A DNA stretch of 64,000 bases from Sedimentisphaerales bacterium (GTDB lineage Bacteria > Planctomycetota > Phycisphaerae > Sedimentisphaerales > SM23-30). Below the pieces are notes generated by a model. That model had not been told where the DNA came from, searched no databases, and saw only the letters and a list, made by a program, of their open reading frames with translations. Below are positions 38,203-59,430 of the stretch, one piece after another. The stretch lies in the NCBI GenBank assembly GCA_963666285.1, contig OY762711.1. One strand, given 5' to 3'. How positions within the stretch are numbered: position 1 is the stretch's first letter; every line of letters begins with the position of its first letter. Position numbers and translations under genes: made by a program.

Positions 38203-38630
38203 TTTTAACACATGATACCGGTTATTTTCAAGCAAAAAATACACGTTTACAAATTTAATCTGTATCTCGCCTTGGAAGTTTTAACACCATCATCTAAGTA
38301 ATATAACTTTTGATTGGAACTTCTGGATTTATTTATGCTGGCTTGGCATGCAGATTGATAGAATAATTTTTTATAAATTATGAAGTTAAAAAAGATTATG
38401 GGTGTTTTTTACTCGGTTTACACTTGATTTTATACCCATTTATGTTAACGTCATATTCATTGCTAAAATTTAGCAGGAGTGTTTTTTTCTTAATTTATGT
38501 TTGTGAATGATTAATTCAAAATGTTGAGGTAATACCCAATATTGGGTTATAAATAAAAGAGTGGAATTCTAAGGTTCGGGATATTGAAATATTCCGGGAT
38601 TATATTCTTTTACCATTATGAAGGAGACTT

Positions 38631-41345
38631 ATGATGAGGTATTTTTTTGTTGGATGTGGTTTGATGTTATGTGTGTTTCTCTCTCAAAAACTATCTGCTC
38701 AGGTTGTTGAGCCTGTTATATCACCAACAACAACTTCATGTTATTACGGTGAAACTTCAAGCTCTGCAAATGACTGCTGGGTTGAAGTTATCAGCAGACG
38801 TAGTACGGATACTTATACCAATCTGTATTTGTATGTTGATATCGATGGGTGCCTTATATCTGAATATGAGGTTTATGAAATACCTCAGTTTTCAACACCG
38901 GTACCCGTGCAAATGAATGTAAACGATATTATGGTTGTATGGGATGAAGACGCTACTCATGGCGAAATACCACCTGACGGTGATTTTAGTTTTACCGGGA
39001 TAATAGTCAAAGACCCAAACTGTCCGTATATCAGGGTTCGCACAAATGACCAGGATGACATATTAAACTGGTCTGTTCATAGAGTTGTTGAGGCCGGCAC
39101 ATTAACTGTTAACGATACAGGCCTTAATGAGCATGATGTTATATTATTTCCGAATGGTATGAGTCGAATACTATTATATAAAGATGATGATGTTGCTGAT
39201 GGCGAATGTGTCTCTCCCGATACCCAGGAGAACAAAGAATTTACTTATACTATCTGTTACAAGAATGAATCATATCACAACTTGACAAATGTTAAGATCG
39301 TTGATTATTTGCCCAAAAATGTTTACTATCCGAAGGGGTGGGAATGGATAGATAGCAACTTGAACGTGATACCGCCTGACCCGAATTATGACCCCAATTT
39401 TCATACTTATACCTGGGAAATCGGCACGCTTGCACCGGATACCGACCCCAATACTCCTTTGACATGCGTTTCACTGGATGTAGAAGTAAGCGAATATGCC
39501 GAACCGGGCGAGATTTTGCACAATGTGGCTGAGTTAATAGGTACATATTCTATTGAAGATATCAATGGTAATATAGTTACCTTTGAAACAGTTCTGGCGA
39601 TTGCAACAGAAGATACTCCTGTCTGCTGCTATGGCGATCCTAATATAATTTTCGTAGATATTAACGCAGACGGATATGATACCGGTTCAAGCTGGGATAA
39701 TGCTTATAATACCGAATCCGGCCTGCAAAAGGCATTACAACGGGCCTGGAAATCTCCTTGCAGCGAAGCGTTTACGATTTATGTGGCTAAAGGTACCTAT
39801 CTGCCGGGCATTTCAGAAGATGACAGCTTCGTATTACCCGATGGAACCGAGATTTACGGCGGTTTCCCGACCGGAGGATGTGATTTTGCCAATAGGAACG
39901 CAAAGAAATATAAGACAATATTAAGCGGTTTACTATCTGACAGGTATATTGATACTGTTGTCACTATGGGTTATGAATCATTGCTGGATGGTGTAACGAT
40001 TACTGATGGCTGGGACTATAATATCTACAGTCCGGGTTTGGATTTTACAATAAATAATTGTATTGTCAGTAATAGTATTAACTATGGTATCTATGTTTCA
40101 GATGCAAATGCTGCTATCAAATCATGTATGGTTAAAAATAATGGTGCAAGTGGTATCTTCCATGAAAGTATTTTAAGCAATCTTAATGTCTCTAACTCTT
40201 GGGTTATGAGGAATAATAATCATGGAATTAGAACTGAAGGTACTACTCCTACTATTAAAAATTGTATTATATCTGAAAGTGACCTCTCAGAAGAAGGTAA
40301 TAATGGTATTAGTATCTTGAATCCGGCCTACAGTCCTGTGCTGCATAACAACACAATCTCAAATAATAAATCCGCCGGATTATTTTTTACAGATGATATT
40401 AGCTGTGATCCTAACAGTACACCACTAGATTATCCGGACATTCAGAACTGCATAATTTACTATAACAACAGTAACGGTCCGCAGCTGAGCGGCATAGATG
40501 CAGACATGGCATATTACAGCTGCATACAGGACTGTAATGATGTCAACAACAATCATAATATCAGTTCTGCACCTATGTTTGCCTATCCTGCTGACCCGGC
40601 CGGTACACCTGACCCGAATAACTACCATTTAGCATATAACTCTATCTGTAAAGATATTGGCAATCCAAACCTGGTTTATACCGATCAGGTTGACTATGAT
40701 AATGAGGTGCGGGTTGCCGGTGCATATGTTGATTTGGGTGCCGATGAAGTGTATTCCTGTGATGGAAATTATACCGAGGAAGAATTTGCCAACGAAAACG
40801 ACTGGAACGCGGACGGCATAGTAAACCTGGAAGAGTTCAGATTCTTTGCCGATTCATGGCTTACTCTTGACCCCGGTGATCCCGGATGGGCTGACCCGAA
40901 CTATGGCGACCCCAATGATACCTTTGATTGGAATCCGGCATGTAACCTGGATGATACCGGCACCAGCCAGTACAGTATAGATATGGCGGATTTGACAGTA
41001 TTTGTATTTGATGTGCCCTGGCTCTGGCAGGCATGCTGGTATGAAAATTACAATGCAAGTATCAGCGGAGAGGTAACTATGATGGCAGCTTCGGTTACTC
41101 CGCTGGAATCTGTAGCAAGTGTGGCGGCATTAAGCCTGGATACGGATGCAGAAGCAACGGTCAATCCTTATGATAGAATGAGTAATTCTGAACTGGCACA
41201 GATAGTCAGCGATATTTATTATCTTCAGGATTGCGTAGCAGAAAAGATTCTACAGACCCATAAAGGTAAAGATAAGAAAGATTTACAGGATATTCTGGAC
41301 TTTTTCGATGAAGAATTGGCCAAAATAGCCGAATCTTTACAATAA
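38631..41345 (+). CDS. Large secreted protein: DUF11-like domain, right-handed beta-helix, dockerin-like repeat
   Basis: Signal peptide; FTYTICYKN..NVKIVDYLP (DUF11-like); GSSWDNAY, IYVAKGTY, IYGGF; N-rich beta-helix repeats; VDLGADE; DWNADGIVNLEEF. Confidence 0.82.
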   Translation: MMRYFFVGCGLMLCVFLSQKLSAQVVEPVISPTTTSCYYGETSSSANDCWVEVISRRSTDTYTNLYLYVDIDGCLISEYEVYEIPQFSTPVPVQMNVNDIMVVWDEDATHGEIPPDGDFSFTGIIVKDPNCPYIRVRTNDQDDILNWSVHRVVEAGTLTVNDTGLNEHDVILFPNGMSRILLYKDDDVADGECVSPDTQENKEFTYTICYKNESYHNLTNVKIVDYLPKNVYYPKGWEWIDSNLNVIPPDPNYDPNFHTYTWEIGTLAPDTDPNTPLTCVSLDVEVSEYAEPGEILHNVAELIGTYSIEDINGNIVTFETVLAIATEDTPVCCYGDPNIIFVDINADGYDTGSSWDNAYNTESGLQKALQRAWKSPCSEAFTIYVAKGTYLPGISEDDSFVLPDGTEIYGGFPTGGCDFANRNAKKYKTILSGLLSDRYIDTVVTMGYESLLDGVTITDGWDYNIYSPGLDFTINNCIVSNSINYGIYVSDANAAIKSCMVKNNGASGIFHESILSNLNVSNSWVMRNNNHGIRTEGTTPTIKNCIISESDLSEEGNNGISILNPAYSPVLHNNTISNNKSAGLFFTDDISCDPNSTPLDYPDIQNCIIYYNNSNGPQLSGIDADMAYYSCIQDCNDVNNNHNISSAPMFAYPADPAGTPDPNNYHLAYNSICKDIGNPNLVYTDQVDYDNEVRVAGAYVDLGADEVYSCDGNYTEEEFANENDWNADGIVNLEEFRFFADSWLTLDPGDPGWADPNYGDPNDTFDWNPACNLDDTGTSQYSIDMADLTVFVFDVPWLWQACWYENYNASISGEVTMMAASVTPLESVASVAALSLDTDAEATVNPYDRMSNSELAQIVSDIYYLQDCVAEKILQTHKGKDKKDLQDILDFFDEELAKIAESLQ

Positions 41346-41348
41346 ATA

Positions 41349-41397
41349 TTGAACCTGCCTGCCGTTATTTGGTATAATAGCGGCAGGTAAGGTTTTT
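41349..41397 (+). promoter_or_regulatory. Terminator-like hairpin overlapping a probable promoter for the PEP-CTERM array
   Basis: Stem CCTGCCGTTAT/ATAGCGGCAGG followed by GGTTTTT; TTGAAC-N18-TATAAT with extended -10 TGgTATAAT at 41370-41378. Confidence 0.55.
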
Positions 41398-41423: not shown

Positions 41424-42071
41424 ATGAAATTATCGCAAATGGTGTTAATATTGATATTGACTGTTAACATATCCTATGGGAGTATTCGAGATGCTAACGG
41501 TATAACCAATGATGGAATAATATCAAATAATGAATATGGCTATAATGTACGAGTAAGCGAAGACAGTGTTTTAACAATTACAGGTGGCGGAGCTGATGAC
41601 ATTGAATTGAAAGATTATTCTCATTTAGATGTCCTATCAACTAAAACTCCACTATCAGACGGTAATAATGGTGGAGGTGGAATATACAACATTGTTCCCA
41701 GCGACAACAGCACTATCACTTTTTCCGGTGGTGTTGCCAACTATATTTATGTCCAAAAAGATGCAGCGGCAATCATCAATGGCGGCCAGGTCAATCTGAT
41801 CAGAACTGCACAATATGAATATGTCGGAAAAACAATTACAATAGAATGCTGTGATGGCTGGTCCTGGCTTTATGATAACGAAGGAGAAATTAACGGTATT
41901 ACCGGGCAATGGTATAAGTACGGCAATGACGAATTTTCGATAAAATTCTTGAATATTGATAAACCATTATTAACAGATACTTATACTCATGTAAAGGTTG
42001 TTACCCCTGAACCTGCAACTATCGTTCTGCTTACTCTGGGCGGAGTGATAATGAAAAGACGATGTGTATAA
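41424..42071 (+). CDS. PEP-CTERM surface protein, array copy 1
   Basis: AGGAG RBS; signal peptide; C-terminal TPEPATIVLLTLGGVIMKRR. Confidence 0.92.
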   Translation: MKLSQMVLILILTVNISYGSIRDANGITNDGIISNNEYGYNVRVSEDSVLTITGGGADDIELKDYSHLDVLSTKTPLSDGNNGGGGIYNIVPSDNSTITFSGGVANYIYVQKDAAAIINGGQVNLIRTAQYEYVGKTITIECCDGWSWLYDNEGEINGITGQWYKYGNDEFSIKFLNIDKPLLTDTYTHVKVVTPEPATIVLLTLGGVIMKRRCV

Positions 42072-42094
42072 TTCTCTTAATCACAGGAGAAATA

Positions 42095-42745
42095 ATGAAA
42101 TTTTCACAAATGATGTTAATATTGATATTGACTGTTAACATATCTTACGGGAGTATTTCTGATGCTAATGGGTTAACCAGTGATGGAATAATATCAGATG
42201 GTGAATATGGTACTAATGTACAGGTAAGTGAAGACAGTATTTTAACTTTTACAGGAGGAGGATCAAATGTTGTTGAACTTGGAGACTATTCTCATTTAGA
42301 GGTTATTTCAACTAAAACACCATTATCAGGCTACTATGAGGGGGGGGGTGGGATTTATAACATTACTTCTAATGATAACAGCACTGTTACTTTTTCCGGT
42401 GGTGTTGCCAACTATATTTATGTCCAAAAAGATGCAGCAGCAATCATCAATGGCGGACAGGTCAATCTGATTAGAAGTATTCAAAAACCTACTGCCGGCG
42501 AAACAATTACAATTGAATGCTGCGAGGGTTGGTCCTGGCTTTATGATAACGAAGGAGAAATCAACGGCATTACCGGGCAGTGGTATAAGTACGGCAATGA
42601 CGAATTTTCGATAAAATTCCTAAACGATACCATACAATACAAATATCCAGATACTTATACTCATGTAAAGGTTGTTACCCCTGAACCCGCAACTATCGTT
42701 CTGCTTACTCTGGGCGGAGTGATAATGAAAAGACGATGTGTATAA
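42095..42745 (+). CDS. PEP-CTERM surface protein, array copy 2
   Basis: Start reassigned to ATG 42095 after AGGAG; paralog of copy 1; G9 tract at 42340-42348. Confidence 0.92.
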   Translation: MKFSQMMLILILTVNISYGSISDANGLTSDGIISDGEYGTNVQVSEDSILTFTGGGSNVVELGDYSHLEVISTKTPLSGYYEGGGGIYNITSNDNSTVTFSGGVANYIYVQKDAAAIINGGQVNLIRSIQKPTAGETITIECCEGWSWLYDNEGEINGITGQWYKYGNDEFSIKFLNDTIQYKYPDTYTHVKVVTPEPATIVLLTLGGVIMKRRCV

Positions 42746-42768
42746 TTCTCTTAATCACAGGAGAAAAA

Positions 42769-43416
42769 ATGAAATTTTCACAAATGATGTTAATACTGGC
42801 ATTGGTTAATATCTCATATGGAAGTATTTACGATTCAAATGGTCTTGCAAGCGATGGAATAATTTCTGATGGTGAATATGGCACTAATGTACAGGTAAGC
42901 GAAGACAGTATTTTAACAGTAACTGGCGGAGGAGCTGAACAGATTAGACTATTTGATAATTCTCATTTAGAAATCATTTCAACCAAAACACCATTATCAG
43001 ACTACTACGAAGGCGGAGGTGGAATATATTATATTACTCCCAGCGATAACAGCACTGTTACTTTTTCTGGTGGTATAGCCAACTATATTTATGTCCTAAA
43101 AGATGCAGCAGCAATCATCAATGGCGGACAGGTCAATCTGATTAGAAGTATTCAAAAACCTACTGCCGGCGAAACTATTACAATTGAATGCCGCGAGGGC
43201 TGGTCCTGGCTTTACGATAACGAAGGAGAAATCAACGGCATTGCCGGGCAATGGTATAAGTACGGCAATGACGAATTTTCGATAAAATTCCTAAATGATA
43301 CTATTGTATATTCATTCCCCGACACCTGGACTCATGTAAAGGTTGTTACCCCTGAACCTGCAACTATCGTTCTCCTTACTCTGGGCGGAGTGATAATGAA
43401 AAGACGATGTGTATAA
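42769..43416 (+). CDS. PEP-CTERM surface protein, array copy 3
   Basis: ATG 42769 after AGGAG; PEP-CTERM tail. Confidence 0.92.
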   Translation: MKFSQMMLILALVNISYGSIYDSNGLASDGIISDGEYGTNVQVSEDSILTVTGGGAEQIRLFDNSHLEIISTKTPLSDYYEGGGGIYYITPSDNSTVTFSGGIANYIYVLKDAAAIINGGQVNLIRSIQKPTAGETITIECREGWSWLYDNEGEINGIAGQWYKYGNDEFSIKFLNDTIVYSFPDTWTHVKVVTPEPATIVLLTLGGVIMKRRCV

Positions 43417-43439
43417 TTCTCTTAATCACAGGAGAAAAA

Positions 43440-44081
43440 ATGAAATTTTTACAAATGATGTTAATATTGATATTGACTGTTAACGTATCTTACGGGAGTA
43501 TTTCTGATACAAATGGTTTTGCCAACGATGGTTTGTTAGTGAATAATGAATATGGTTCTAATGTACAGGTCAGTGAAGACAGTATTTTGACAGTGTCTGG
43601 CGGAGGAGCTGAACAGATTAGGCTATTTGACTATTCTCACTTAGTAGTCACTTCAACATCTCAACCGTTTATCGAGTATGAAAGTGGATTGTCATGGGTT
43701 GTTCCTAGCGACAACAGCACTGTTACTTTTTCCGGTGGTGTTGCCAACTATATTTATGTCCAAAAAGATGCAGCAGCAATCATCAATGGCGGACAGGTCA
43801 ATCTGATTAGAAGTATTCAAAAACCTACTGCCGGCGAAACAATTACAATTGAATGCTGCGAGGGTTGGTCCTGGCTTTATGATAACGAAGGAGAAATCAA
43901 CGGCATTACCGGGCAGTGGTATAAGTACGGCAATGACGAATTTTCGATAAAATTCCTAAACGATACCATACAATACAAATATCCAGATACTTATACTCAT
44001 GTAAAGGTTGTTACCCCTGAACCCGCAACTATCGTTCTGCTTACTCTGGGCGGAGTGATAATGAAAAGACGATGTGTATAA
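43440..44081 (+). CDS. PEP-CTERM surface protein, array copy 4
   Basis: ATG 43440 after AGGAG; PEP-CTERM tail. Confidence 0.92.
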   Translation: MKFLQMMLILILTVNVSYGSISDTNGFANDGLLVNNEYGSNVQVSEDSILTVSGGGAEQIRLFDYSHLVVTSTSQPFIEYESGLSWVVPSDNSTVTFSGGVANYIYVQKDAAAIINGGQVNLIRSIQKPTAGETITIECCEGWSWLYDNEGEINGITGQWYKYGNDEFSIKFLNDTIQYKYPDTYTHVKVVTPEPATIVLLTLGGVIMKRRCV

Positions 44082-44104
44082 TTCTCTTAATCACAGGAGA
44101 AAAA

Positions 44105-44755
44105 ATGAAATTTTCACAAATGATGTTAATACTGGCATTGGTTAATATCTCATATGGAAGTATTTACGATTCAAATGGTCTTGCAAGCGATGGAATAATT
44201 TCTGATGGTGAATATGGCACTAATGTACAGGTAAGCGAAGACAGTATTTTAACAGTAACTGGCGGAGGAGCTGAACAGATTAGACTATTTGATAATTCTC
44301 ATTTAGAAATCATTTCAACCAAAACACCATTATCAGACTACTACGAAGGCGGAGGTGGAATATATTATATTACTCCCAGCGATAACAGCACTGTTACTTT
44401 TTCTGGTGGTATAGCCAACTATATTTATGTCCTAAAAGATGCAGCAGCAATCATCAATGGCGGACAGGTCAATCTGATTAGAAGTATTCAAAAACCTACT
44501 GTTGGCGAAACAATTACAATTGAATGCTGCGAGGGTTGGTCCTGGCTTTACGATAACGAAGGAGAAATCAACGGCATTACAGGGCAGTGGTATAAGTACG
44601 GCAATGACGAATTTTCGATAAAATTCCTAAACGATACCATACAATACAAATATCCAGATACTTATACTCATGTAAAGGTTGTTACCCCTGAACCTGCAAC
44701 TATCGCTCTGCTTACCCTGTGTGGTTTGCTTGCCAAAAGAAATAGACAGTTCTGA
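44105..44755 (+). CDS. PEP-CTERM surface protein, array copy 5 (distinct tail)
   Basis: ATG 44105; tail TPEPATIALLTLCGLLAKRNRQF. Confidence 0.92.
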   Translation: MKFSQMMLILALVNISYGSIYDSNGLASDGIISDGEYGTNVQVSEDSILTVTGGGAEQIRLFDNSHLEIISTKTPLSDYYEGGGGIYYITPSDNSTVTFSGGIANYIYVLKDAAAIINGGQVNLIRSIQKPTVGETITIECCEGWSWLYDNEGEINGITGQWYKYGNDEFSIKFLNDTIQYKYPDTYTHVKVVTPEPATIALLTLCGLLAKRNRQF

Positions 44756-44784: not shown

Positions 44785-44823
44785 AAACGCTGGACGAATT
44801 TATAATCGCCCGGCGTTTTTTTT
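44785..44823 (+). terminator. Intrinsic terminator closing the array
   Basis: AAACGCTGGACGA...TCGCCCGGCGTTT followed by a T run. Confidence 0.8.
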
Positions 44824-45110
44824 CAACAAACACCTGAATGGGCCTTCCTGTTGCCTGTGTTATTAAAAAAGCTTGGTCCGCGTTGCAATGGCAAAATATA
44901 TCGATTATACCGCCTGATATAATCGTATCAGTCAGGCATCTAAGGTCATCCTGATAATATCAATAATTCTTAACAATTATATGTATTCCTTCACTTTAAA
45001 TATTACACTTTCCCTATATTGTCCACCTGTTCTGACCGATAATTGTCAATGGTGTGATAAGTAAAGCGATAATGGATGAATATATATACCTTAATGAGGT
45101 TGAGAGAGAA

Positions 45111-48100
45111 TTGAAAAGAGCTAGAGGACCAAAAAGAATAACCGGGCTGTTATTCTGTTTTCTGATTATTATTTTTGTCAGTGATGCACGTGCAATTATT
45201 CGTCATCCGGACGATGGCGGCGGCAATCCGTTTGCCCATCCATCTGACAATATTATCGGAAAATGGGGATCGAACGCTTCTTGTGTTGCGATTGCGCCCG
45301 ATCTTGTTATTACCACCTGTCATCAGGGCGGTGGGGTCGGCACTTATGTCTCTATTGCCGGCGGCAGCTATCGTGTATCTGCTGTTTACCAGGCAACCTA
45401 TGATGGTACCGACCTCGATATGAGAATCGCCCAGCTCACCGGTGCCTCTCTTACCGAATACGTTGAAATCTATACCGGATCTATAGACTCTCTGCTCAAT
45501 GCCGAACTTACTATTGGCGGATGGGGTAAAGACCGTGGTGATACCATTGAATATGGTGGTAAGCCCTGTGAATATTATTGGGCGAGCCAGAGAAGTGATT
45601 CTTTGCAGTGGTGTACCAATATATGCCATAGATTTACGCCGTTGACAGGTATTGATTATCTCGTCTGCGATTTTGACGGTCCGGACCCGACAATCGATGA
45701 TCCGGCGACAACTTACGAAGGCATTATTGCCGAGTATGATTCCGGCGGCGGATGGTTTGTTTATAGCAATGGCTGGAAGCTCGTCGCTCTATCTGCACGG
45801 GTTGAAAGAGCTGATAAAGCCAGGTTCCGCAGGTATTATCTCGAACAGTTTGTAGCTGACCCTGACGATTTCAAAGGGCCGAATGTTACTGTTGTTGCTG
45901 ACTGGATTGATGGCTATGTTCAGCAGCATCTGCCAAACAGTGGTCCGTACCTTACTTCGCCGTCCAACTATACCGTAACTGCCGGCAGCAGGCTAAGCTT
46001 TAACCTGTATCTAAGTGATGCCGAAGGTGATGGCTTTTCTGTTGCTTGCGATAGCAAACCAACCGGCTCTGCTTTTGATTCTTCCAGCAAGACGTTTTCA
46101 TGGGAGCCGGACTACGGTTCTGAAGGCAGTTATTCTGCCGGATTTACCGCAACTGATGATAGGGGCAAATCGACTAGTTTTGATATCGCTATTACCGTAC
46201 AGCGTGGCAACCGCTCACCGGAACTAGACTCTGTAAGCAACCAGGCAGTTACCGAAACGGGAAATCTGTCATTTAGCGTATCAGCCTCTGACCCGGATGG
46301 TGATACCATTTCTTATAGCTTAAACAATGCGCCGTCCGGCATGCAGATCAACAGCAGCACCGGCGCTGTCAGCTGGCTGACGGATTATAGTGATGCCGGT
46401 TCGTATTCTATAACAATAATAGCTTCAGACGGTTCGCTTTCAGACTCACAGTTAATAACTGTTACTGTAAATAATAAAAATCGCGATCCGCAAATTTCCG
46501 TTTCCGGTGATACCACCCCGAAATTTACCGATGGGCTAAACTTGACTGTTAATACTTCAGATCCGGATAATGACGGACTTACTGTCAGCGTAAACAATTT
46601 ACCCACTGGTGCGGTTTTCAACTCATCTACCGGTAAGATCACTTGGGCTACCGACAAAGATGATATGGGTGATTATAGCTTTACCGTCAATGTTTCCGAC
46701 GGCCAGGCAAATATCAGCAGCAATATTAGTTTTACCATTGCCGACGATCCGGATTATGTCGAAAACTACCCGCCGGTATTGTCTCCGCTTAACGAAGTCT
46801 CTGCCGATGAAGGCACTCTTGTTACCTTCACTGCCCAGGCTTCCGACCAGAATGGTGATACCATTACTTACAGCTTGAGCGGCGCACCGTCCGGCATGCA
46901 GATCAACAGCAGTACCGGCACAGTTACATGGTCAACCGACTACTCCGATGCCGGTTCCTATACCATAACTGTTATCGCCTCTGACGGTTTGCTTTCAGAC
47001 AGTCAGCAGGTTGCTGTAACCATAAACAACAAAAATCGCAGCCCGGAAATATCTGTTACAGGCAATACCGCTCCAAAATTCACGGCTGGACTTTCTCTTT
47101 CTGTAAATACCACAGATCCGGATAATGATGCTCTAACCATAACTGTTGAAAACCTGCCGACTGGAGCGCTGTTTAACTCTTCAACCGGCATGATCACCTG
47201 GTCAACTGATAAGGATGATGTCGGTCAGTATAGTATCAGGGTTACGGCTTCTGATAGTCAGGAAAATGCGATAAGCACAATAGTTGTTACTATTGCTGAC
47301 GATCCTGATTATGTTGAAAACCATAATCCTGTTATGGCTGCAATCAGTGATATAGCTGCTGATGAAGGTACTCTTTTTACCTTTACTGCCCAGGCTTCAG
47401 ACCCGGATGGCGACACCATAATATACAGCTTAGCCAATACCCCGTCCGGCATGCAGATCAACAGCAGTACCGGCACAGTTACATGGTTAACCGGCTACTC
47501 TGATGCCGGTTCCTATACCATAACTGTTATCGCCTCTGACAGCTCGCTTTCAGACAGTCAGCAGGTTGCTGTAACCATAAACAACAAAAATCGCAGCCCG
47601 GAAATATCTGTTTCCGGCAATACCGGTCCGCTGTTCACTGCCGGTCTTGAATTGACCGTTTCCATCACCGACCCGGATGGCGATGATGTTACTGTCTCTG
47701 TTGATGATCTGCCAACTGGTGCCAAATACAACAAGGCAAGTGGCATTATCAGCTGGACAACTGAATTTGAAGATATTGGCCAATACACAATAATTGTATC
47801 TGCCTCGGACGGCGAAACTGATGTTAACAAAAGTGTTACTATTACCATCGCCGATGACCCTGCATATGTCGATAATGACCCTCCGGTAATCGTTCCGGTT
47901 GATTCTATCTCTGTTAATGAAGGTGAGACTATCGCTTTTGCCTTACAGGTAAGCGATCCGGATGGCGATTCGCTCACTGTCAATGTCAGTAACCTCCCGA
48001 ACGGTGCTGTTTTTGTTAACAATACATTTACCTGGCTGACCGGGGCTGATGATATTGGCAACTATTCGCTGTTGTTTACTGTCTCTGATGGTATTGACAC

Positions 48101-50336
48101 TGCGTCAATGACGGTTTATATGGAAATAAAAGACGTTAACTATTCTCCGTCTGCTAAAGTTACAGGCAGCACCAAGGCCATAGCCGGTGAACCGATCTCG
48201 CTTGTTATCGAGGCGAGTGACCCAGACGGCGATGTGTTAACTTATTCGCTTAAAGCCGCCCCGAAAACTATGGCTATTAGCGGCGCTAATATCAACTGGA
48301 ATACTTCCGAAGATGATGACGGTACCTATAAATTTACAGTTATCGTTTCTGACGGTCAGGACAATGTGTCGGTTCCTGTTACCATAACTCTGATATCAGC
48401 TGACCAGGACAGGGAATCGCCGTTTATCGTCTCAACTTATCCGGCTGACGGCAATATCCAGATTCCGCTGAATCCGCTTATTACTATTACCCTTGCCGAT
48501 TATGGTGATGGTATTGACTATGAAACTGTCAGTATAACGATAGATGGCGAAGACATCTTGGCCGGTTCTTCCATTTCTTCTGTTGCCGATGATTCCGACC
48601 AGGTATTATACAGCTCTCAATCAAGCAAGGTTGTTCGTACCGGAAACTCTTCTAGATACACCTACCAGTATCAGGCCGAGGATATGTTCGATTACGACTA
48701 CAGCCCGGAAGTTATTGTCAGTGCCAAAGACCTCAACGGCAACCAGATGCCGCCGTATAGTTTCAGCTTTACTACCGAAATGTTCAGTATGGCCGCGGCA
48801 ATACCCGTAGATGAAGCCAAATCCGTTACTGGCAGCGAATATCAATGCGATCCGGTTATCTCAATCGGCCAGAATGATATCGTCTGGTCAGCATGGTGTG
48901 AAGGACCTTCTGCTAGCAGGGCGATTCAGTTCGCTCCTTATTATAACAATACCGGCCAATTCGATACTGCCCGGACTATCACCGGCACTGCTGATATGGC
49001 ATCCGTTGATATTGCGGTGGACGATTCTGGACGATTGTATTTCGTCTGGCAGGATAACTCCGCCGGTAACTGGGATATCTACGCCGCTCGCAGTAGTGAC
49101 GGTATTACACTTGATATCGAAACCGCAGTTGTCGAAGGTGAAGAAGATCAGACTGCACCTGTTATAACTATTGGTGAAAACGGTCGGCTGTATGTCGCTT
49201 ATGTGGTAGAACGAAAGACCGGCAGGGATATTTATCTTTCCGAGCTGGACGACAGTCTCAGTTTTATCTCAGAATCTGCCGTCTGCTCCTATTCCGGCCA
49301 ACAGGACAATCCTGTCATAGCTTCCGGCCCTGACGGCGATATTCATATCGCCTGGGAAGACTATCGCGATGGCAATTGTGCCGTATATGCAGCTTCGCTT
49401 AACAACAGCTTTACTAATTACATAATTGCAGCAAACTCAGACCAGCCTGATATTGTTACCGACAGCAGCGGTAAATACCTCCACACCGCATGGCGATCAA
49501 ACGATGATATCTTCTATAGCAAGATAGCACTTCCGCTTTCCGGTAAGGCTGTTACAGCTGTTAACGTGATTGACGACAGTACCTTGGCTGCCCAGTCCGG
49601 TCCGTCTATATGCCATTATAGTGACGACAAAAAATCCCGGACGCTTGTCTCGTGGACCGACGCTCGCAATGCCGCTGATAATAACGATTATGATATTTAT
49701 TTCGCATCTGTTGACAAGGCTTCTATGACCAATATACTGGCTACTGTCGATACCAATCTGGATTGTCAGTCTGCTTCGGCTATTGCTTCCGGCAGCTCCG
49801 GCACTCCATATGTCCTTTTCCAGGAACTATCCGATTCCGGTCGACAGATACAGATGGCGTCAGCAACTCTGGTCGAAGCTACTCTAAGCAGGATGAACGT
49901 AACTGCCGCAGACGGTGGCTGTGTCGGCATACCGCTCGAAATGGTTGACAGTGTTGACGATGTCTCTATTACCGTCCCGCAAAACGCGCTCAGCAGCGAT
50001 ATCGAAATGACTATCTCGCGTGTTAGTAACCCGCCTAGTGACGGCCAGGGCGTAACCAGCCTGTTCAGCTACGATTTCGGCCCGTCCAGTACCCGCGAGT
50101 TCCGCAAGCCGCTAACTGTGGTTATACCATATCCCAAACAGATTGGCGGCACAGAAGTTACCGTTTACTGGTACAACCCCCAGACCGGTTCTTACTCACA
50201 AACCGGCATGTCCGGCATAGAAACGCTAAATATCAACAGCGAGCTCAACGCTGTACGGTTCAATACCACCCATTTCTCTCAATATTCGGTCTCGTCGAAT
50301 TTTGTACCGTGGATTACCAGCAGTTTAGCGGAATAA
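45111..50336 (+). CDS. Giant secreted protein: trypsin-like protease, tandem cadherin/He_PIG-like Ig repeats, propeller-like region, ZU5-like C-terminus (ORF open from 45054)
   Basis: Signal peptide; TTCHQGG / DLDMRI / YDSGGGWF triad-like motifs; repeated ASDPDGDTIxYSL..PSGMQINSSTG..W; SLFSYDFGP...RFNTTHFSQY. Confidence 0.82.
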   Translation: MKRARGPKRITGLLFCFLIIIFVSDARAIIRHPDDGGGNPFAHPSDNIIGKWGSNASCVAIAPDLVITTCHQGGGVGTYVSIAGGSYRVSAVYQATYDGTDLDMRIAQLTGASLTEYVEIYTGSIDSLLNAELTIGGWGKDRGDTIEYGGKPCEYYWASQRSDSLQWCTNICHRFTPLTGIDYLVCDFDGPDPTIDDPATTYEGIIAEYDSGGGWFVYSNGWKLVALSARVERADKARFRRYYLEQFVADPDDFKGPNVTVVADWIDGYVQQHLPNSGPYLTSPSNYTVTAGSRLSFNLYLSDAEGDGFSVACDSKPTGSAFDSSSKTFSWEPDYGSEGSYSAGFTATDDRGKSTSFDIAITVQRGNRSPELDSVSNQAVTETGNLSFSVSASDPDGDTISYSLNNAPSGMQINSSTGAVSWLTDYSDAGSYSITIIASDGSLSDSQLITVTVNNKNRDPQISVSGDTTPKFTDGLNLTVNTSDPDNDGLTVSVNNLPTGAVFNSSTGKITWATDKDDMGDYSFTVNVSDGQANISSNISFTIADDPDYVENYPPVLSPLNEVSADEGTLVTFTAQASDQNGDTITYSLSGAPSGMQINSSTGTVTWSTDYSDAGSYTITVIASDGLLSDSQQVAVTINNKNRSPEISVTGNTAPKFTAGLSLSVNTTDPDNDALTITVENLPTGALFNSSTGMITWSTDKDDVGQYSIRVTASDSQENAISTIVVTIADDPDYVENHNPVMAAISDIAADEGTLFTFTAQASDPDGDTIIYSLANTPSGMQINSSTGTVTWLTGYSDAGSYTITVIASDSSLSDSQQVAVTINNKNRSPEISVSGNTGPLFTAGLELTVSITDPDGDDVTVSVDDLPTGAKYNKASGIISWTTEFEDIGQYTIIVSASDGETDVNKSVTITIADDPAYVDNDPPVIVPVDSISVNEGETIAFALQVSDPDGDSLTVNVSNLPNGAVFVNNTFTWLTGADDIGNYSLLFTVSDGIDTASMTVYMEIKDVNYSPSAKVTGSTKAIAGEPISLVIEASDPDGDVLTYSLKAAPKTMAISGANINWNTSEDDDGTYKFTVIVSDGQDNVSVPVTITLISADQDRESPFIVSTYPADGNIQIPLNPLITITLADYGDGIDYETVSITIDGEDILAGSSISSVADDSDQVLYSSQSSKVVRTGNSSRYTYQYQAEDMFDYDYSPEVIVSAKDLNGNQMPPYSFSFTTEMFSMAAAIPVDEAKSVTGSEYQCDPVISIGQNDIVWSAWCEGPSASRAIQFAPYYNNTGQFDTARTITGTADMASVDIAVDDSGRLYFVWQDNSAGNWDIYAARSSDGITLDIETAVVEGEEDQTAPVITIGENGRLYVAYVVERKTGRDIYLSELDDSLSFISESAVCSYSGQQDNPVIASGPDGDIHIAWEDYRDGNCAVYAASLNNSFTNYIIAANSDQPDIVTDSSGKYLHTAWRSNDDIFYSKIALPLSGKAVTAVNVIDDSTLAAQSGPSICHYSDDKKSRTLVSWTDARNAADNNDYDIYFASVDKASMTNILATVDTNLDCQSASAIASGSSGTPYVLFQELSDSGRQIQMASATLVEATLSRMNVTAADGGCVGIPLEMVDSVDDVSITVPQNALSSDIEMTISRVSNPPSDGQGVTSLFSYDFGPSSTREFRKPLTVVIPYPKQIGGTEVTVYWYNPQTGSYSQTGMSGIETLNINSELNAVRFNTTHFSQYSVSSNFVPWITSSLAE
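46332..47611 (+). repeat. Intragenic 555-bp (185-aa, two-domain) tandem repeat, about 3 units
   Basis: ccgtccggcatgcagatcaacagcag recurs at about 46332, 46887 and 47442; units 2 and 3 are near-identical over about 170 bp. Confidence 0.8.
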
Positions 50337-58154: not shown

Positions 58155-59174
58155 TTAACTTCTGCTTCTCGCTCTTATCTCCATCGGCAATATACTCGAA
58201 TACACAAACCGGTTCACCGGCACATCGACTCCCAGCTCTTCGCCCAGCCGCACAACCGTACCGTTCTGATACTCGATCTCTGACGGCCTGCCCGCCAGCA
58301 CATCCCTCGTCAGCGAACAGTTCGAATCATACGGACACTTATCTATTATCGCCATCGTCTTTTCCACCACATTCGGCATCGGCGTCACTCCCTTAGCGAT
58401 CGCTACATTATTAACCTCCGTCATAAGCTCAATCATCATCTTTCTGGTCTCCGGTATCTCCCTCAGCGGACCATAGGTGCTGTTACTTACTACCAGCAGA
58501 CCGCTCGTACATATGAATGTAAACTTCTGCCATATCGCGGCAATAATATCGTCCGGAACCTTGCAATTGACACCCGCATCATCGAACACTTTTTGAATTT
58601 TCAGAACCCGCTCAGACTTCTCATTACTGGGCTCACCAAGCTCTATTGTTGGGTTCACGCCAAAATGGGTGATTACCCCCGGCATATCCGCCTTACTAAA
58701 GATTCGACATAGCCCGCATAACGCCGCGCTATAGCCGTCACCCGCCGCACCTGTGCCGTGGCCGTTCGTTAGCTCGTTTTGCGCCGCGCTGCCTCCGTTC
58801 AACGCCGTACTACTGCCGCGGTTGTTCGTTAATACGCCGTTAAGCTCCTCGGTCGACAAGACACCGTTTTGCAGCGGCAGTACCGCCGTACCAGCGCCGC
58901 AGATGCTTTGTATCTGCTCCGCGGCCTCCCGAACCTGCCACGATTTCACGCCGAGCACAACCAGCTCTACTTCACCTATCTCCGACACATTATCTGTCAC
59001 CTGAACTTCGGGTATAAAAAAATCGCCGTCTACACTCTTTACCGTCAGCCCGTTTTTACGCATCGCCTCCAGCGTCGCACCTCGTGCGACAAACGTAACG
59101 TCGTTACCCGCTTGTGCCAGCTTACCGCCGAAATATCCGCCGACCCCGCCGGCTCCTATCACTGCTATCTTCAT
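58155..59174 (-). CDS. panE: 2-dehydropantoate 2-reductase with an in-frame low-complexity insertion
   Basis: IGAGGVGGYFG, LGVKS, LPLQNG, IWQKF, SLTRD, EIEYQNG. Confidence 0.92.
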   Translation of the reverse strand: MKIAVIGAGGVGGYFGGKLAQAGNDVTFVARGATLEAMRKNGLTVKSVDGDFFIPEVQVTDNVSEIGEVELVVLGVKSWQVREAAEQIQSICGAGTAVLPLQNGVLSTEELNGVLTNNRGSSTALNGGSAAQNELTNGHGTGAAGDGYSAALCGLCRIFSKADMPGVITHFGVNPTIELGEPSNEKSERVLKIQKVFDDAGVNCKVPDDIIAAIWQKFTFICTSGLLVVSNSTYGPLREIPETRKMMIELMTEVNNVAIAKGVTPMPNVVEKTMAIIDKCPYDSNCSLTRDVLAGRPSEIEYQNGTVVRLGEELGVDVPVNRFVYSSILPMEIRARSRS

Positions 59175-59430
59175 AATATCGTTTCTTTATCTTAAAGTTT
59201 ACTTTTGCAGTTTTTAAGTTGCAAAAATCGCCTAAAAGGGCCTTCCTGCAACGCTTATTTTTAAACAAAGCGTGAGACGATAGTCGAACACCTGAATTTT
59301 TCACTTTTCATTATTCATTTTTCACTTAATTGGCTCTGTTCTGGCCTTTGCGTGTAATGTTGAACAGTCAAAATTGCTCTAGGTTCAAATGATTATAACA
59401 CTCTGCAAAACGTAAGTACAATAAATATAA

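Follow-up and report, generated by a model that had tools for sequence, protein, structure and literature searches.

The 64,000-nt stretch of contig OY762711.1 (Sedimentisphaerales bacterium, assembly GCA_963666285.1) analyzed here, called the window below, contains five tandem genes for small proteins with PEP-CTERM tails. This array forms the 3' portion of a two-part cassette, relatives of which occur on phage-like contigs of this genome as well, and its small genes are a mosaic of a few old loop alleles that have probably been reshuffled by RecA-type recombination and are probably displayed as a varied surface binding set; taken as a whole, we give this explanation an even chance of being right. 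A first-pass annotation of the window had proposed that conserved blocks in the array act as crossover points for variable surface loops. That account stands in part, but it overlooked the large partner gene, two sister arrays, and the link to phage.

Organization of the cassette

The array had been taken to be complete in itself; in fact, the functional unit starts with an upstream gene at 38631-41345. Large gene and array recur jointly at C1:5.49 Mb (92% over 5 kb), at C1:1.26 Mb (78%), and more distantly elsewhere. The BLAST match to the C1:5.49 Mb sister starts at position 38373, with 91.6% identity across 5 kb and 94% across 278 nt in the upstream part. Twelve close copies of the small gene make up three sister arrays, A, B, and C (three, five, and four copies, respectively), the window array being B. 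The features of the window cassette are:

38373..38630, + strand, upstream region: left edge of the duplicated cassette, common only to the sister cassette at C1:5.49 Mb
38631..41345, + strand, large partner gene: 904 aa, signal peptide-like start, no PEP-CTERM
41349..41389, + strand, hairpin and extended -10-like site between the large gene and the array: terminator-like at 41356-41389, promoter-like at 41349-41378 (consensus match only)
41424..42071, + strand, copy 1 (B1): 215-aa PEP-CTERM beta-roll; 5' tract equal to that of sister copy A3 across 231 columns
42095..42745, + strand, copy 2 (B2): 216 aa; identical to sister copy C2 in columns 49-246
42340..42348, + strand, G9 tract: glycine loop of copy 2, in frame; sister copy C2 has G8 and is frameshifted
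42377..43165, + strand, 789-bp direct repeat, first copy: 3' half of copy 2, spacer, and 5' half of copy 3
42769..43416, + strand, copy 3 (B3): 215 aa; protein used for the structure model
43440..44081, + strand, copy 4 (B4): 213 aa; short V3 loop allele, of the type seen in phage-borne and other-species homologues
43713..44501, + strand, 789-bp direct repeat, second copy: 3' half of copy 4, spacer, and 5' half of copy 5
44105..44755, + strand, copy 5 (B5): 216 aa; array-terminal tail variant
44787..44823, + strand, likely array terminator: imperfect GC-rich hairpin followed by a T run, also present after sister copy C3; recognized by eye, not in the hairpin scan

The five open reading frames (ORFs) lie head-to-tail on one strand, as first described, with starts at 41424, 42095, 42769, 43440, and 44105 (unit spacings of 671, 674, 671, and 665) and products of 215, 216, 215, 213, and 216 aa. 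A 23-bp spacer follows each unit, with an AGGAG site ahead of the following ATG, and the invariant and variable blocks quoted in the first-pass annotation are all present. Pairs of the five copies are 77-91% identical over the unit. The PEP-CTERM assignment is borne out by TIGR02595, which copies 1-4 pass (17.5-18.9 bits against a cut-off of 16) and which copy 5 narrowly misses (14.8 bits), its PEP motif being visible; Pfam PF07589 remained below its cut-off in all five. Two PF09721 matches above cut-off confirm that the genome encodes exosortases. By eye, the N-terminus of the copies is basic-hydrophobic and signal peptide-like.

The 904-aa large protein consists, in order, of an exchangeable N-terminal domain, a DUF11-like beta-sandwich, a right-handed beta-helix, a dockerin-like double EF-hand region, and an acidic two-helix tail. 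Pfam recognizes Beta_helix (E 1.5e-11) and DUF1565, with DUF11 under the cut-off; the closest Atlas cluster is Dockerin_1 (0.92, 115 shared features), which is a lead only. The predicted structure (predicted local distance difference test, pLDDT, 63) contains the beta-sandwich, the beta-helix, and the helical tail, with low confidence for the N-terminus and the dockerin-like region. The C-terminus is the conserved part of the large genes, its invariant residues being of Ca-binding and structural type, and the N-terminal domain is swapped between cassettes, with RCC1 repeats in one. Pfam, NCBIfam, PHROGs, and PDB sequence searches recognized no toxin domain in the large proteins. The large gene of sister array A (L045:1005-5615) has an IS3-type element inserted near its 5' end, and the small genes of that array still exchange blocks.

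Downstream of the array, at window positions 45054-50336, is a gene for a 1760-aa surface protein with multiple immunoglobulin-like domains and 555-bp internal repeats; a paralogue of its C-terminal part lies at C1:3.58 Mb.

Mosaic structure of the small genes

By eye, each of the 12 close copies has a different combination of blocks. The recombination expected from the first-pass annotation was detected across these copies by a pairwise homoplasy index (PHI)-type test (p = 0.001), and the segment trees conflict: with the gene divided into four segments, every segment rejected the trees from the remaining three, in all 12 cross-segment comparisons (approximately unbiased test, p ≤ 0.0013), the whole-gene tree not being rejected by the first segment. 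Hudson-Kaplan counts (18 and 37) were not used because they are inflated by repeated mutation. Identical tracts of 120-400 nt join copies in different arrays in 14 of 66 pairs, the arrays being 0.25 and 4 Mb apart, and the 3' end of copy A3 has 80% identity to a copy on phage-like contig C3, whereas it has ~70% to its own subfamily. In the relative G001, pairs among 11 copies are 31-68% identical at the 5' end and 95-100% identical in 3' windows (PHI-type p = 0.002).

Within the window, alignment columns 1-400 do not differ between copies 3 and 5, nor do columns 283-677 between copies 2 and 4, so the shared halves first described are real; they are, however, one event and not two. Both patterns belong to a single contiguous and perfect 789-bp repeat (42377-43165 = 43713-44501) that crosses the gene boundary, and thus only one event is seen inside the window. 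The copy-1-like NNEYG stretch ascribed to copy 4 is poor evidence of transfer, as it depends on three shared sites in a short tract. Sample X3 yielded a 425-nt contig that joins a copy-5-type start in register to a copy-2-type middle, with 17 letters shared at the joint, a block combination found in none of the 12 aligned copies; given the uneven depth and adapter-like loose ends in X3, this joint could be a library chimera. X3 stretches without cover were not used.

That the window contains no dedicated recombinase was confirmed: tyrosine, serine, and IS110-type recombinases and reverse transcriptase were not found there. None of the three arrays has a tyrosine recombinase nearer than about 40 kb, and RecA is encoded in the genome. 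We consider it very probable that the recombination step was RecA-type unequal crossing-over together with conversion.

Old loop alleles

The variable blocks had been called hypervariable, but diversifying selection on them is not seen. The pairwise Nei-Gojobori (NG86) ratio of nonsynonymous to synonymous divergence (dN/dS) is 0.24 overall and ≤0.49 in 20 of 20 ten-codon blocks, in an alignment in which two frameshifted copies were read through. In the variable blocks, dS is high as well as dN; across the gene, dS is 0.07-0.4 in codons 101-150 versus 0.4-1.1 in codons 21-90.

The alternative loops recur in other-species and phage homologues (56 proteins): V3 as long and short forms, V4 as QKP and QY, and V5 as three types, with both V4 alleles and all three V5 types also present in genome G003 and in phage-borne copies. 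In the best-conserved shared loops, 11-15 of 13-18 residues are kept and more than half of the synonymous codons have changed, the homologues being otherwise ~52-59% identical; these belong to 12 allele-sharing pairs chosen by eye, and in four of the 12, the short-V3 and Q-Y V4 comparisons, loop identity is as low as 46-70%. Recurring loops with diverged synonymous codons indicate old alternative modules under purifying selection and not freshly mutated sites, a pattern that fits balancing selection. Two V4 pairs show just one synonymous change, and the V4 loop common to A3 and phage copy C3a (10 of 10 residues, one synonymous change) points to a recent import. As counted by eye, six of the seven multi-copy cassettes of the subfamily contain both V4 alleles.

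Distribution of the cassette and its association with phage

This genome (G000) has 13 full cassettes, with one to five small genes after the large gene in each, and two truncated orphan modules composed of a large-gene end and a small gene; several such modules occur in relatives. A hidden Markov model census of G000 gave 25 dockerin-region matches: all 15 with the helical tail precede a small gene, and none of the 10 others, which are weak, does so. In 27 other genomes, the large-gene end is directly upstream of the small gene in 25 of 27 loci, one exception being at a contig edge; four of these genomes are also in the set of relative loci inspected separately. The small-gene family is present in 40 of 201 genomes of the order (E ≤ 1e-20), mostly in its own genus and in family f6, and the wider small-protein family comprises 762 clusters at E ≤ 0.001 and 25 at 1e-30, its Pfam domain being the anchor only. 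Other PEP-CTERM cargo in cassettes includes leucine-rich repeat, pentapeptide-repeat, and formylglycine-generating enzyme (FGE)-sulfatase-fold genes, all of which are plausible binding scaffolds. In two family-f6 genomes (L035:1906-3195 and L037:2026-3330), a single ORF of ~430 aa combines two small domains, and the large gene is divided among separate ORFs.

PHROGs holds no family for either cassette protein, and an Rfam scan of six loci returned two tRNAs and nothing else. A literature search, which left supplements and subscription papers outside its reach, found no paper on this cassette, and the available text of a 2025 planctomycete review (PMC12673574) has no occurrence of PEP-CTERM, dockerin, prophage, or exosortase.

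Contigs C2-C4 of this genome are 65-67 kb long, mutually related, and phage-like, and carry four cassettes in total. C3 codes for terminase, portal, integrase, and replication proteins (13 of 18 scanned proteins matched); C2 and C4 are homologous to it, and both have integrases. Terminal repeats were not found on C2-C4 by a simple test. For the copies on these contigs, the cassette lies inside a temperate phage genome. Eight of the 13 cassettes are on C2-C4 or beside phage genes, integrase, tRNA, or tmRNA; four chromosomal cassettes adjoin phage replication genes, integrase, tRNA, or tmRNA. C2, C3, and C4 (L041-L043, L048, and L049) each encode, besides the integrase, a giant protein of 3700-5500 aa.

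Two conserved elements stand upstream of large genes. The first, of ~160 nt, precedes five phage-associated large genes and folds as a long rod and a small hairpin (51 predicted pairs, seven of them with a change on both sides); it has no Rfam match in the three of its five loci that were scanned and is absent upstream of the window's cassette. It is a candidate leader or antitermination RNA. The second is 70-90% identical over 350-600 nt, contains a long inverted repeat, and is found before seven G001 cassettes at unrelated housekeeping sites; it may mark how cassettes move or are regulated. Their positions are:

L043:10500-10695, + strand, ~160-nt element
L046:3576-3770, + strand, ~160-nt element
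L047:15432-15631, - strand, ~160-nt element
L048:10506-10701, - strand, ~160-nt element
L049:957-1156, + strand, ~160-nt element
L022-L028, second element, ~200-550 nt upstream of the large genes
L046, second element, ~550-700 nt upstream

Separately, window positions 59170-59380 hold a ~200-nt repeat with dozens of chromosomal copies (70-90% identity), similar to repetitive extragenic palindromic (REP) sequences or miniature inverted-repeat transposable elements (MITE); one copy is immediately upstream of the sister cassette at C1:5.493 Mb.

Predicted structure and expression signals

The beta-solenoid scaffold anticipated in the first reading was recovered: the AlphaFold model of the mature small protein shows a two-sided beta-roll of five turns and, at the C-terminus, a sheet (pLDDT 90, predicted template modeling score, pTM, 0.86). 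A fold search of PDB and BFVD returned no match at E ≤ 0.001, only weak rows of RTX-type beta-rolls, and neither Pfam nor the fold search gave a cohesin match. Across the 12 copies, variation is greater on one face, in line with the earlier expectation (entropy 0.82 on face A versus 0.29 on face B, p about 0.01), the faces having been assigned by strand alternation and not by coordinates and their difference being confounded with position along the roll. Entropy is 0.72-1.0 in three loops, 0.68 in the N-cap, and 0.33-0.34 in the core and C-domain, and variation is also higher at the predicted membrane-distal end.

Every copy has a ribosome-binding site and an anchor. A perfect TATAAT spans the stop codon of copies 1-4 (42045-42072, 42719-42746, 43390-43417, and 44055-44082) as a consensus match and might give each downstream copy a weak promoter of its own; note that promoter-like sites overall are not above those in shuffles (31 versus 29.1).

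Two types of poly-G tract, G9/G8 and G10/G11, are each in frame in one paralogue and frameshifted in another. Four of the 18 G/C runs of at least 8 in the genome are in these 12 copies; runs of at least three glycines in intact ORFs are encoded by such tracts in six of 785 cases, two of the six in these copies. Contigs of run X2 contain both G8 and G9, the two states belonging to different paralogues. The tracts suggest slipped-strand phase variation of the copies; they have two origins only and could be plain decay. Elsewhere (G000:C1:1797361), an in-frame G12 tract lies in a gene whose product has, by eye, a prepilin-like N-terminus, a candidate phase-variable surface gene.

Proposed explanation

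Unequal crossing-over would lengthen the arrays, a process suggested by the observed pattern, and gene conversion among tandem and distant copies would even out the scaffold, swap loop blocks, and at times import a phage-type block. As each copy is complete, with a ribosome-binding site, signal peptide, and anchor, all are predicted to be co-expressed and exosortase-anchored and not to be silent donors; poly-G slippage would turn some of them off. The conserved C-terminal domain and one face would be fixed and might hold the large partner through that protein's dockerin-like end; the membrane-distal end, the other face, and the three loops would contact an outside ligand. This ligand would most likely be viral, which is the weakest step. 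Temperate phages would bring in the cassette as lysogenic-conversion cargo, several alleles would widen the blocking or decoying of related phages, and the host would have kept and expanded copies outside prophages.

A number of observations weigh against this explanation. Taken by themselves, the five copies of the window give no significant PHI-type result (p = 0.36), so that repeated shuffling is not proved from the window only. The large gene ahead of the array is a mosaic as well, meaning that recombination acts on the whole cassette and is not special to the array; loop-block shuffling is a property of any repeated cassette here. Five of the 13 cassettes, including that of the window, have no phage mark; the window's own is among housekeeping genes, outside a prophage. 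None of eight loci fetched from G001 has clear phage genes, all being amid housekeeping genes, and IMG/VR and JGI metagenome scans, which needed short exact patterns and possibly missed near genomes, confirmed no relative. The dN/dS values count on the same side, and divergent patches escape conversion passively, so that the pattern of old loops needs no selection. Large-gene ends and adjacent small genes in G001 give Spearman coefficients of -0.25 to 0.16 (dockerin and tail, nine pairs); this lack of covariation means that allele-specific binding between the two is not indicated, and the correlation that is present in G000 reflects two deep subfamilies. To these are added the limits given above for the two faces, the loop pairs chosen by eye with their less similar members, and the X3 joint.

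A stronger version of the explanation would be a phage-seeded, host-domesticated combinatorial receptor repertoire, in which beta-roll loops are trans-species balanced polymorphisms, recombined across tandem, dispersed, and phage copies, switched by poly-G tracts, and used as an antibody-like phage shield or decoy without a dedicated recombinase. We regard it as doubtful.

Alternative explanations

The most serious competitor is concerted evolution without selection for diversity: phages would have brought the cassette in repeatedly, tandem copies would be kept for dosage, as a structural coat or as an anchor for the large protein, and mosaics would be a by-product of recombination between paralogues. 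The low dN/dS and the mosaic large gene speak for it, as do the two of 12 copies that are frameshifted, the large gene split by IS3, and the common orphan fragments; moreover, PEP-CTERM genes are often duplicated and lost, according to the available text of PMC1569441. It fits less well with the persistence of the same two or three loops across lineages with diverged synonymous sites while the scaffold is homogenized, with the presence of both V4 alleles in nearly all multi-copy cassettes of the subfamily, or with the greater variability of one outward face. On balance, we think concerted evolution of this kind unlikely, though deserving of serious weight.

An improbable reading, and one that the evidence weakly contradicts, is that of a polymorphic toxin-immunity locus, with the large protein as a secreted antibacterial toxin, the small proteins as immunity paralogues, and the orphan modules as spare cassettes. 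The near-obligate linkage of large and small genes and the orphan modules are in its favor, and precedents are found in the available parts of three sources: a similar gene order in the esaG/tipC tandem immunity genes, which recombine via conserved blocks (PMC9484751), tandem lpl lipoproteins that proved to be TilA immunity proteins (PMC10730906), and toxin-immunity pairs borne by prophages (PMC11699363). However, the large proteins lack a recognized toxin domain; it is their C-terminus, dockerin-like with acidic helices and with invariant residues of Ca-binding or structural type, that is conserved, and their N-terminal domains, RCC1 repeats among them, that are swapped. Identical small alleles also occur after large genes with differing N-termini, and in G001 the end of the large gene does not covary with the neighboring small gene.

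A false five-copy array, produced by strain mixtures or by collapsed or expanded repeats, is very improbable. The genome is metagenome-derived, the 789-bp repeat is perfect, and no run contig crosses the array, all of which could favor such an artefact; yet depth is ~1x on copy-4-specific DNA (20.9 and 26.4 in runs X1 and X2, flank 21.9 and 21.4), ~2x for the 5' half of copy 1, and ~4-5x for the segment common to copies 3 and 5 and two sister copies. These steps match the assembled copy numbers and argue against false duplication, with the reservations that X1 and X2 are only possibly the source sample, that no contig there bridges the whole array, and that contig depth is a rough measure. Private sites in each copy and comparable arrays and mosaics in independent genomes also count against it.

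Programmed variation, whether by one expressed copy with silent donors, an invertase shufflon, or a diversity-generating retroelement (whose mutagenesis is adenine-specific), is hardly credible. Conserved blocks do flank variable ones, and genes for reverse transcriptases, recombinases, and IS110 enzymes exist at other sites in the genome; none of these enzymes, however, is in the window, the nearest tyrosine recombinase is far from any array, all five copies are complete, on the same strand, and with their own ribosome-binding sites, and all four bases change, mostly synonymously in rate.

Comparison with known systems

The signal peptide, PEP motif, hydrophobic stretch, basic tail, large number per genome, and lineage-specific expansion are those of the PEP-CTERM/exosortase system (TIGR02595, PF09721; available text of PMC1569441). 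That text covers duplication and loss and lacks the words "phage" and "recombination"; it says nothing of mosaic arrays, of a fixed partner gene, or of carriage by phage.

The mode of evolution is that of the lpl and esaG genes, with tandem non-identical paralogues and incongruent segment trees. In the Staphylococcus aureus lpl/csa/tilA (DUF576) tandem lipoproteins of island nuSa-alpha, crossover in conserved blocks shuffles variable regions, according to the available text of PMC2568036. Both systems consist of tandem membrane-anchored paralogues without a dedicated recombinase, lpl being on a mobile island, and the duplicated block described in that text likewise comprises the 3' part of one gene, the spacer, and the 5' part of the next, as in the 789-bp repeat. 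They differ in that a beta-roll with PEP-CTERM is found here and a DUF576 lipoprotein there, the protein families being unrelated; that about five blocks shuffle here, also between distant loci and with phage-type copies; and that TilA inhibits the TslA lipase (available text of PMC10730906), whereas the linked large gene here has no recognized toxin domain. The esaG/tipC strings of type VII secretion loci (available text of PMC9484751) have in common with the arrays their conserved blocks, extensive tandem recombination, gain and loss of copies, and position downstream of a large secreted-protein gene, but those strings follow proven toxins with polymorphic C-termini, whereas here the C-terminus is conserved and covariation is lacking. 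The small proteins had no Pfam or NCBIfam match at E ≤ 0.1 to DUF576 (Lpl/TilA) or EsaG.

Antigenic variation by gene conversion is known for Borrelia vlsE and for Neisseria pilE/pilS and opa, and the lamprey variable lymphocyte receptors (VLR) are solenoid receptors. Segmental mosaics on a conserved scaffold are common to all of these and to the arrays; VLR have solenoid variation on one face, and opa are complete dispersed genes with slipped-strand switches. Unlike vlsE and pilE, the arrays have no single expression site or silent donors and no sign of rapid somatic-type variation or positive selection, and their alleles are old and few. As in cohesin-dockerin anchoring, the gene for a secreted protein that ends in a dockerin-like region adjoins one for a protein anchored to the cell; here, however, the small protein is a beta-roll without a cohesin match, and its pairing with the large protein is putative.

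Significance

PEP-CTERM proteins are plentiful in environmental bacteria, mostly without known function. The present family now has a fixed partner gene, a route of spread by phage, and defined swappable loops, so that an allele-specific function is directly testable. In S. aureus, as far as the available text of the TilA study goes, a like evolutionary pattern marked immunity proteins, and the identity of the ligand therefore matters under either reading. If the loops are kept by phage pressure, the arrays would be a trans-species balanced surface polymorphism in a free-living bacterium, generated by ordinary recombination.

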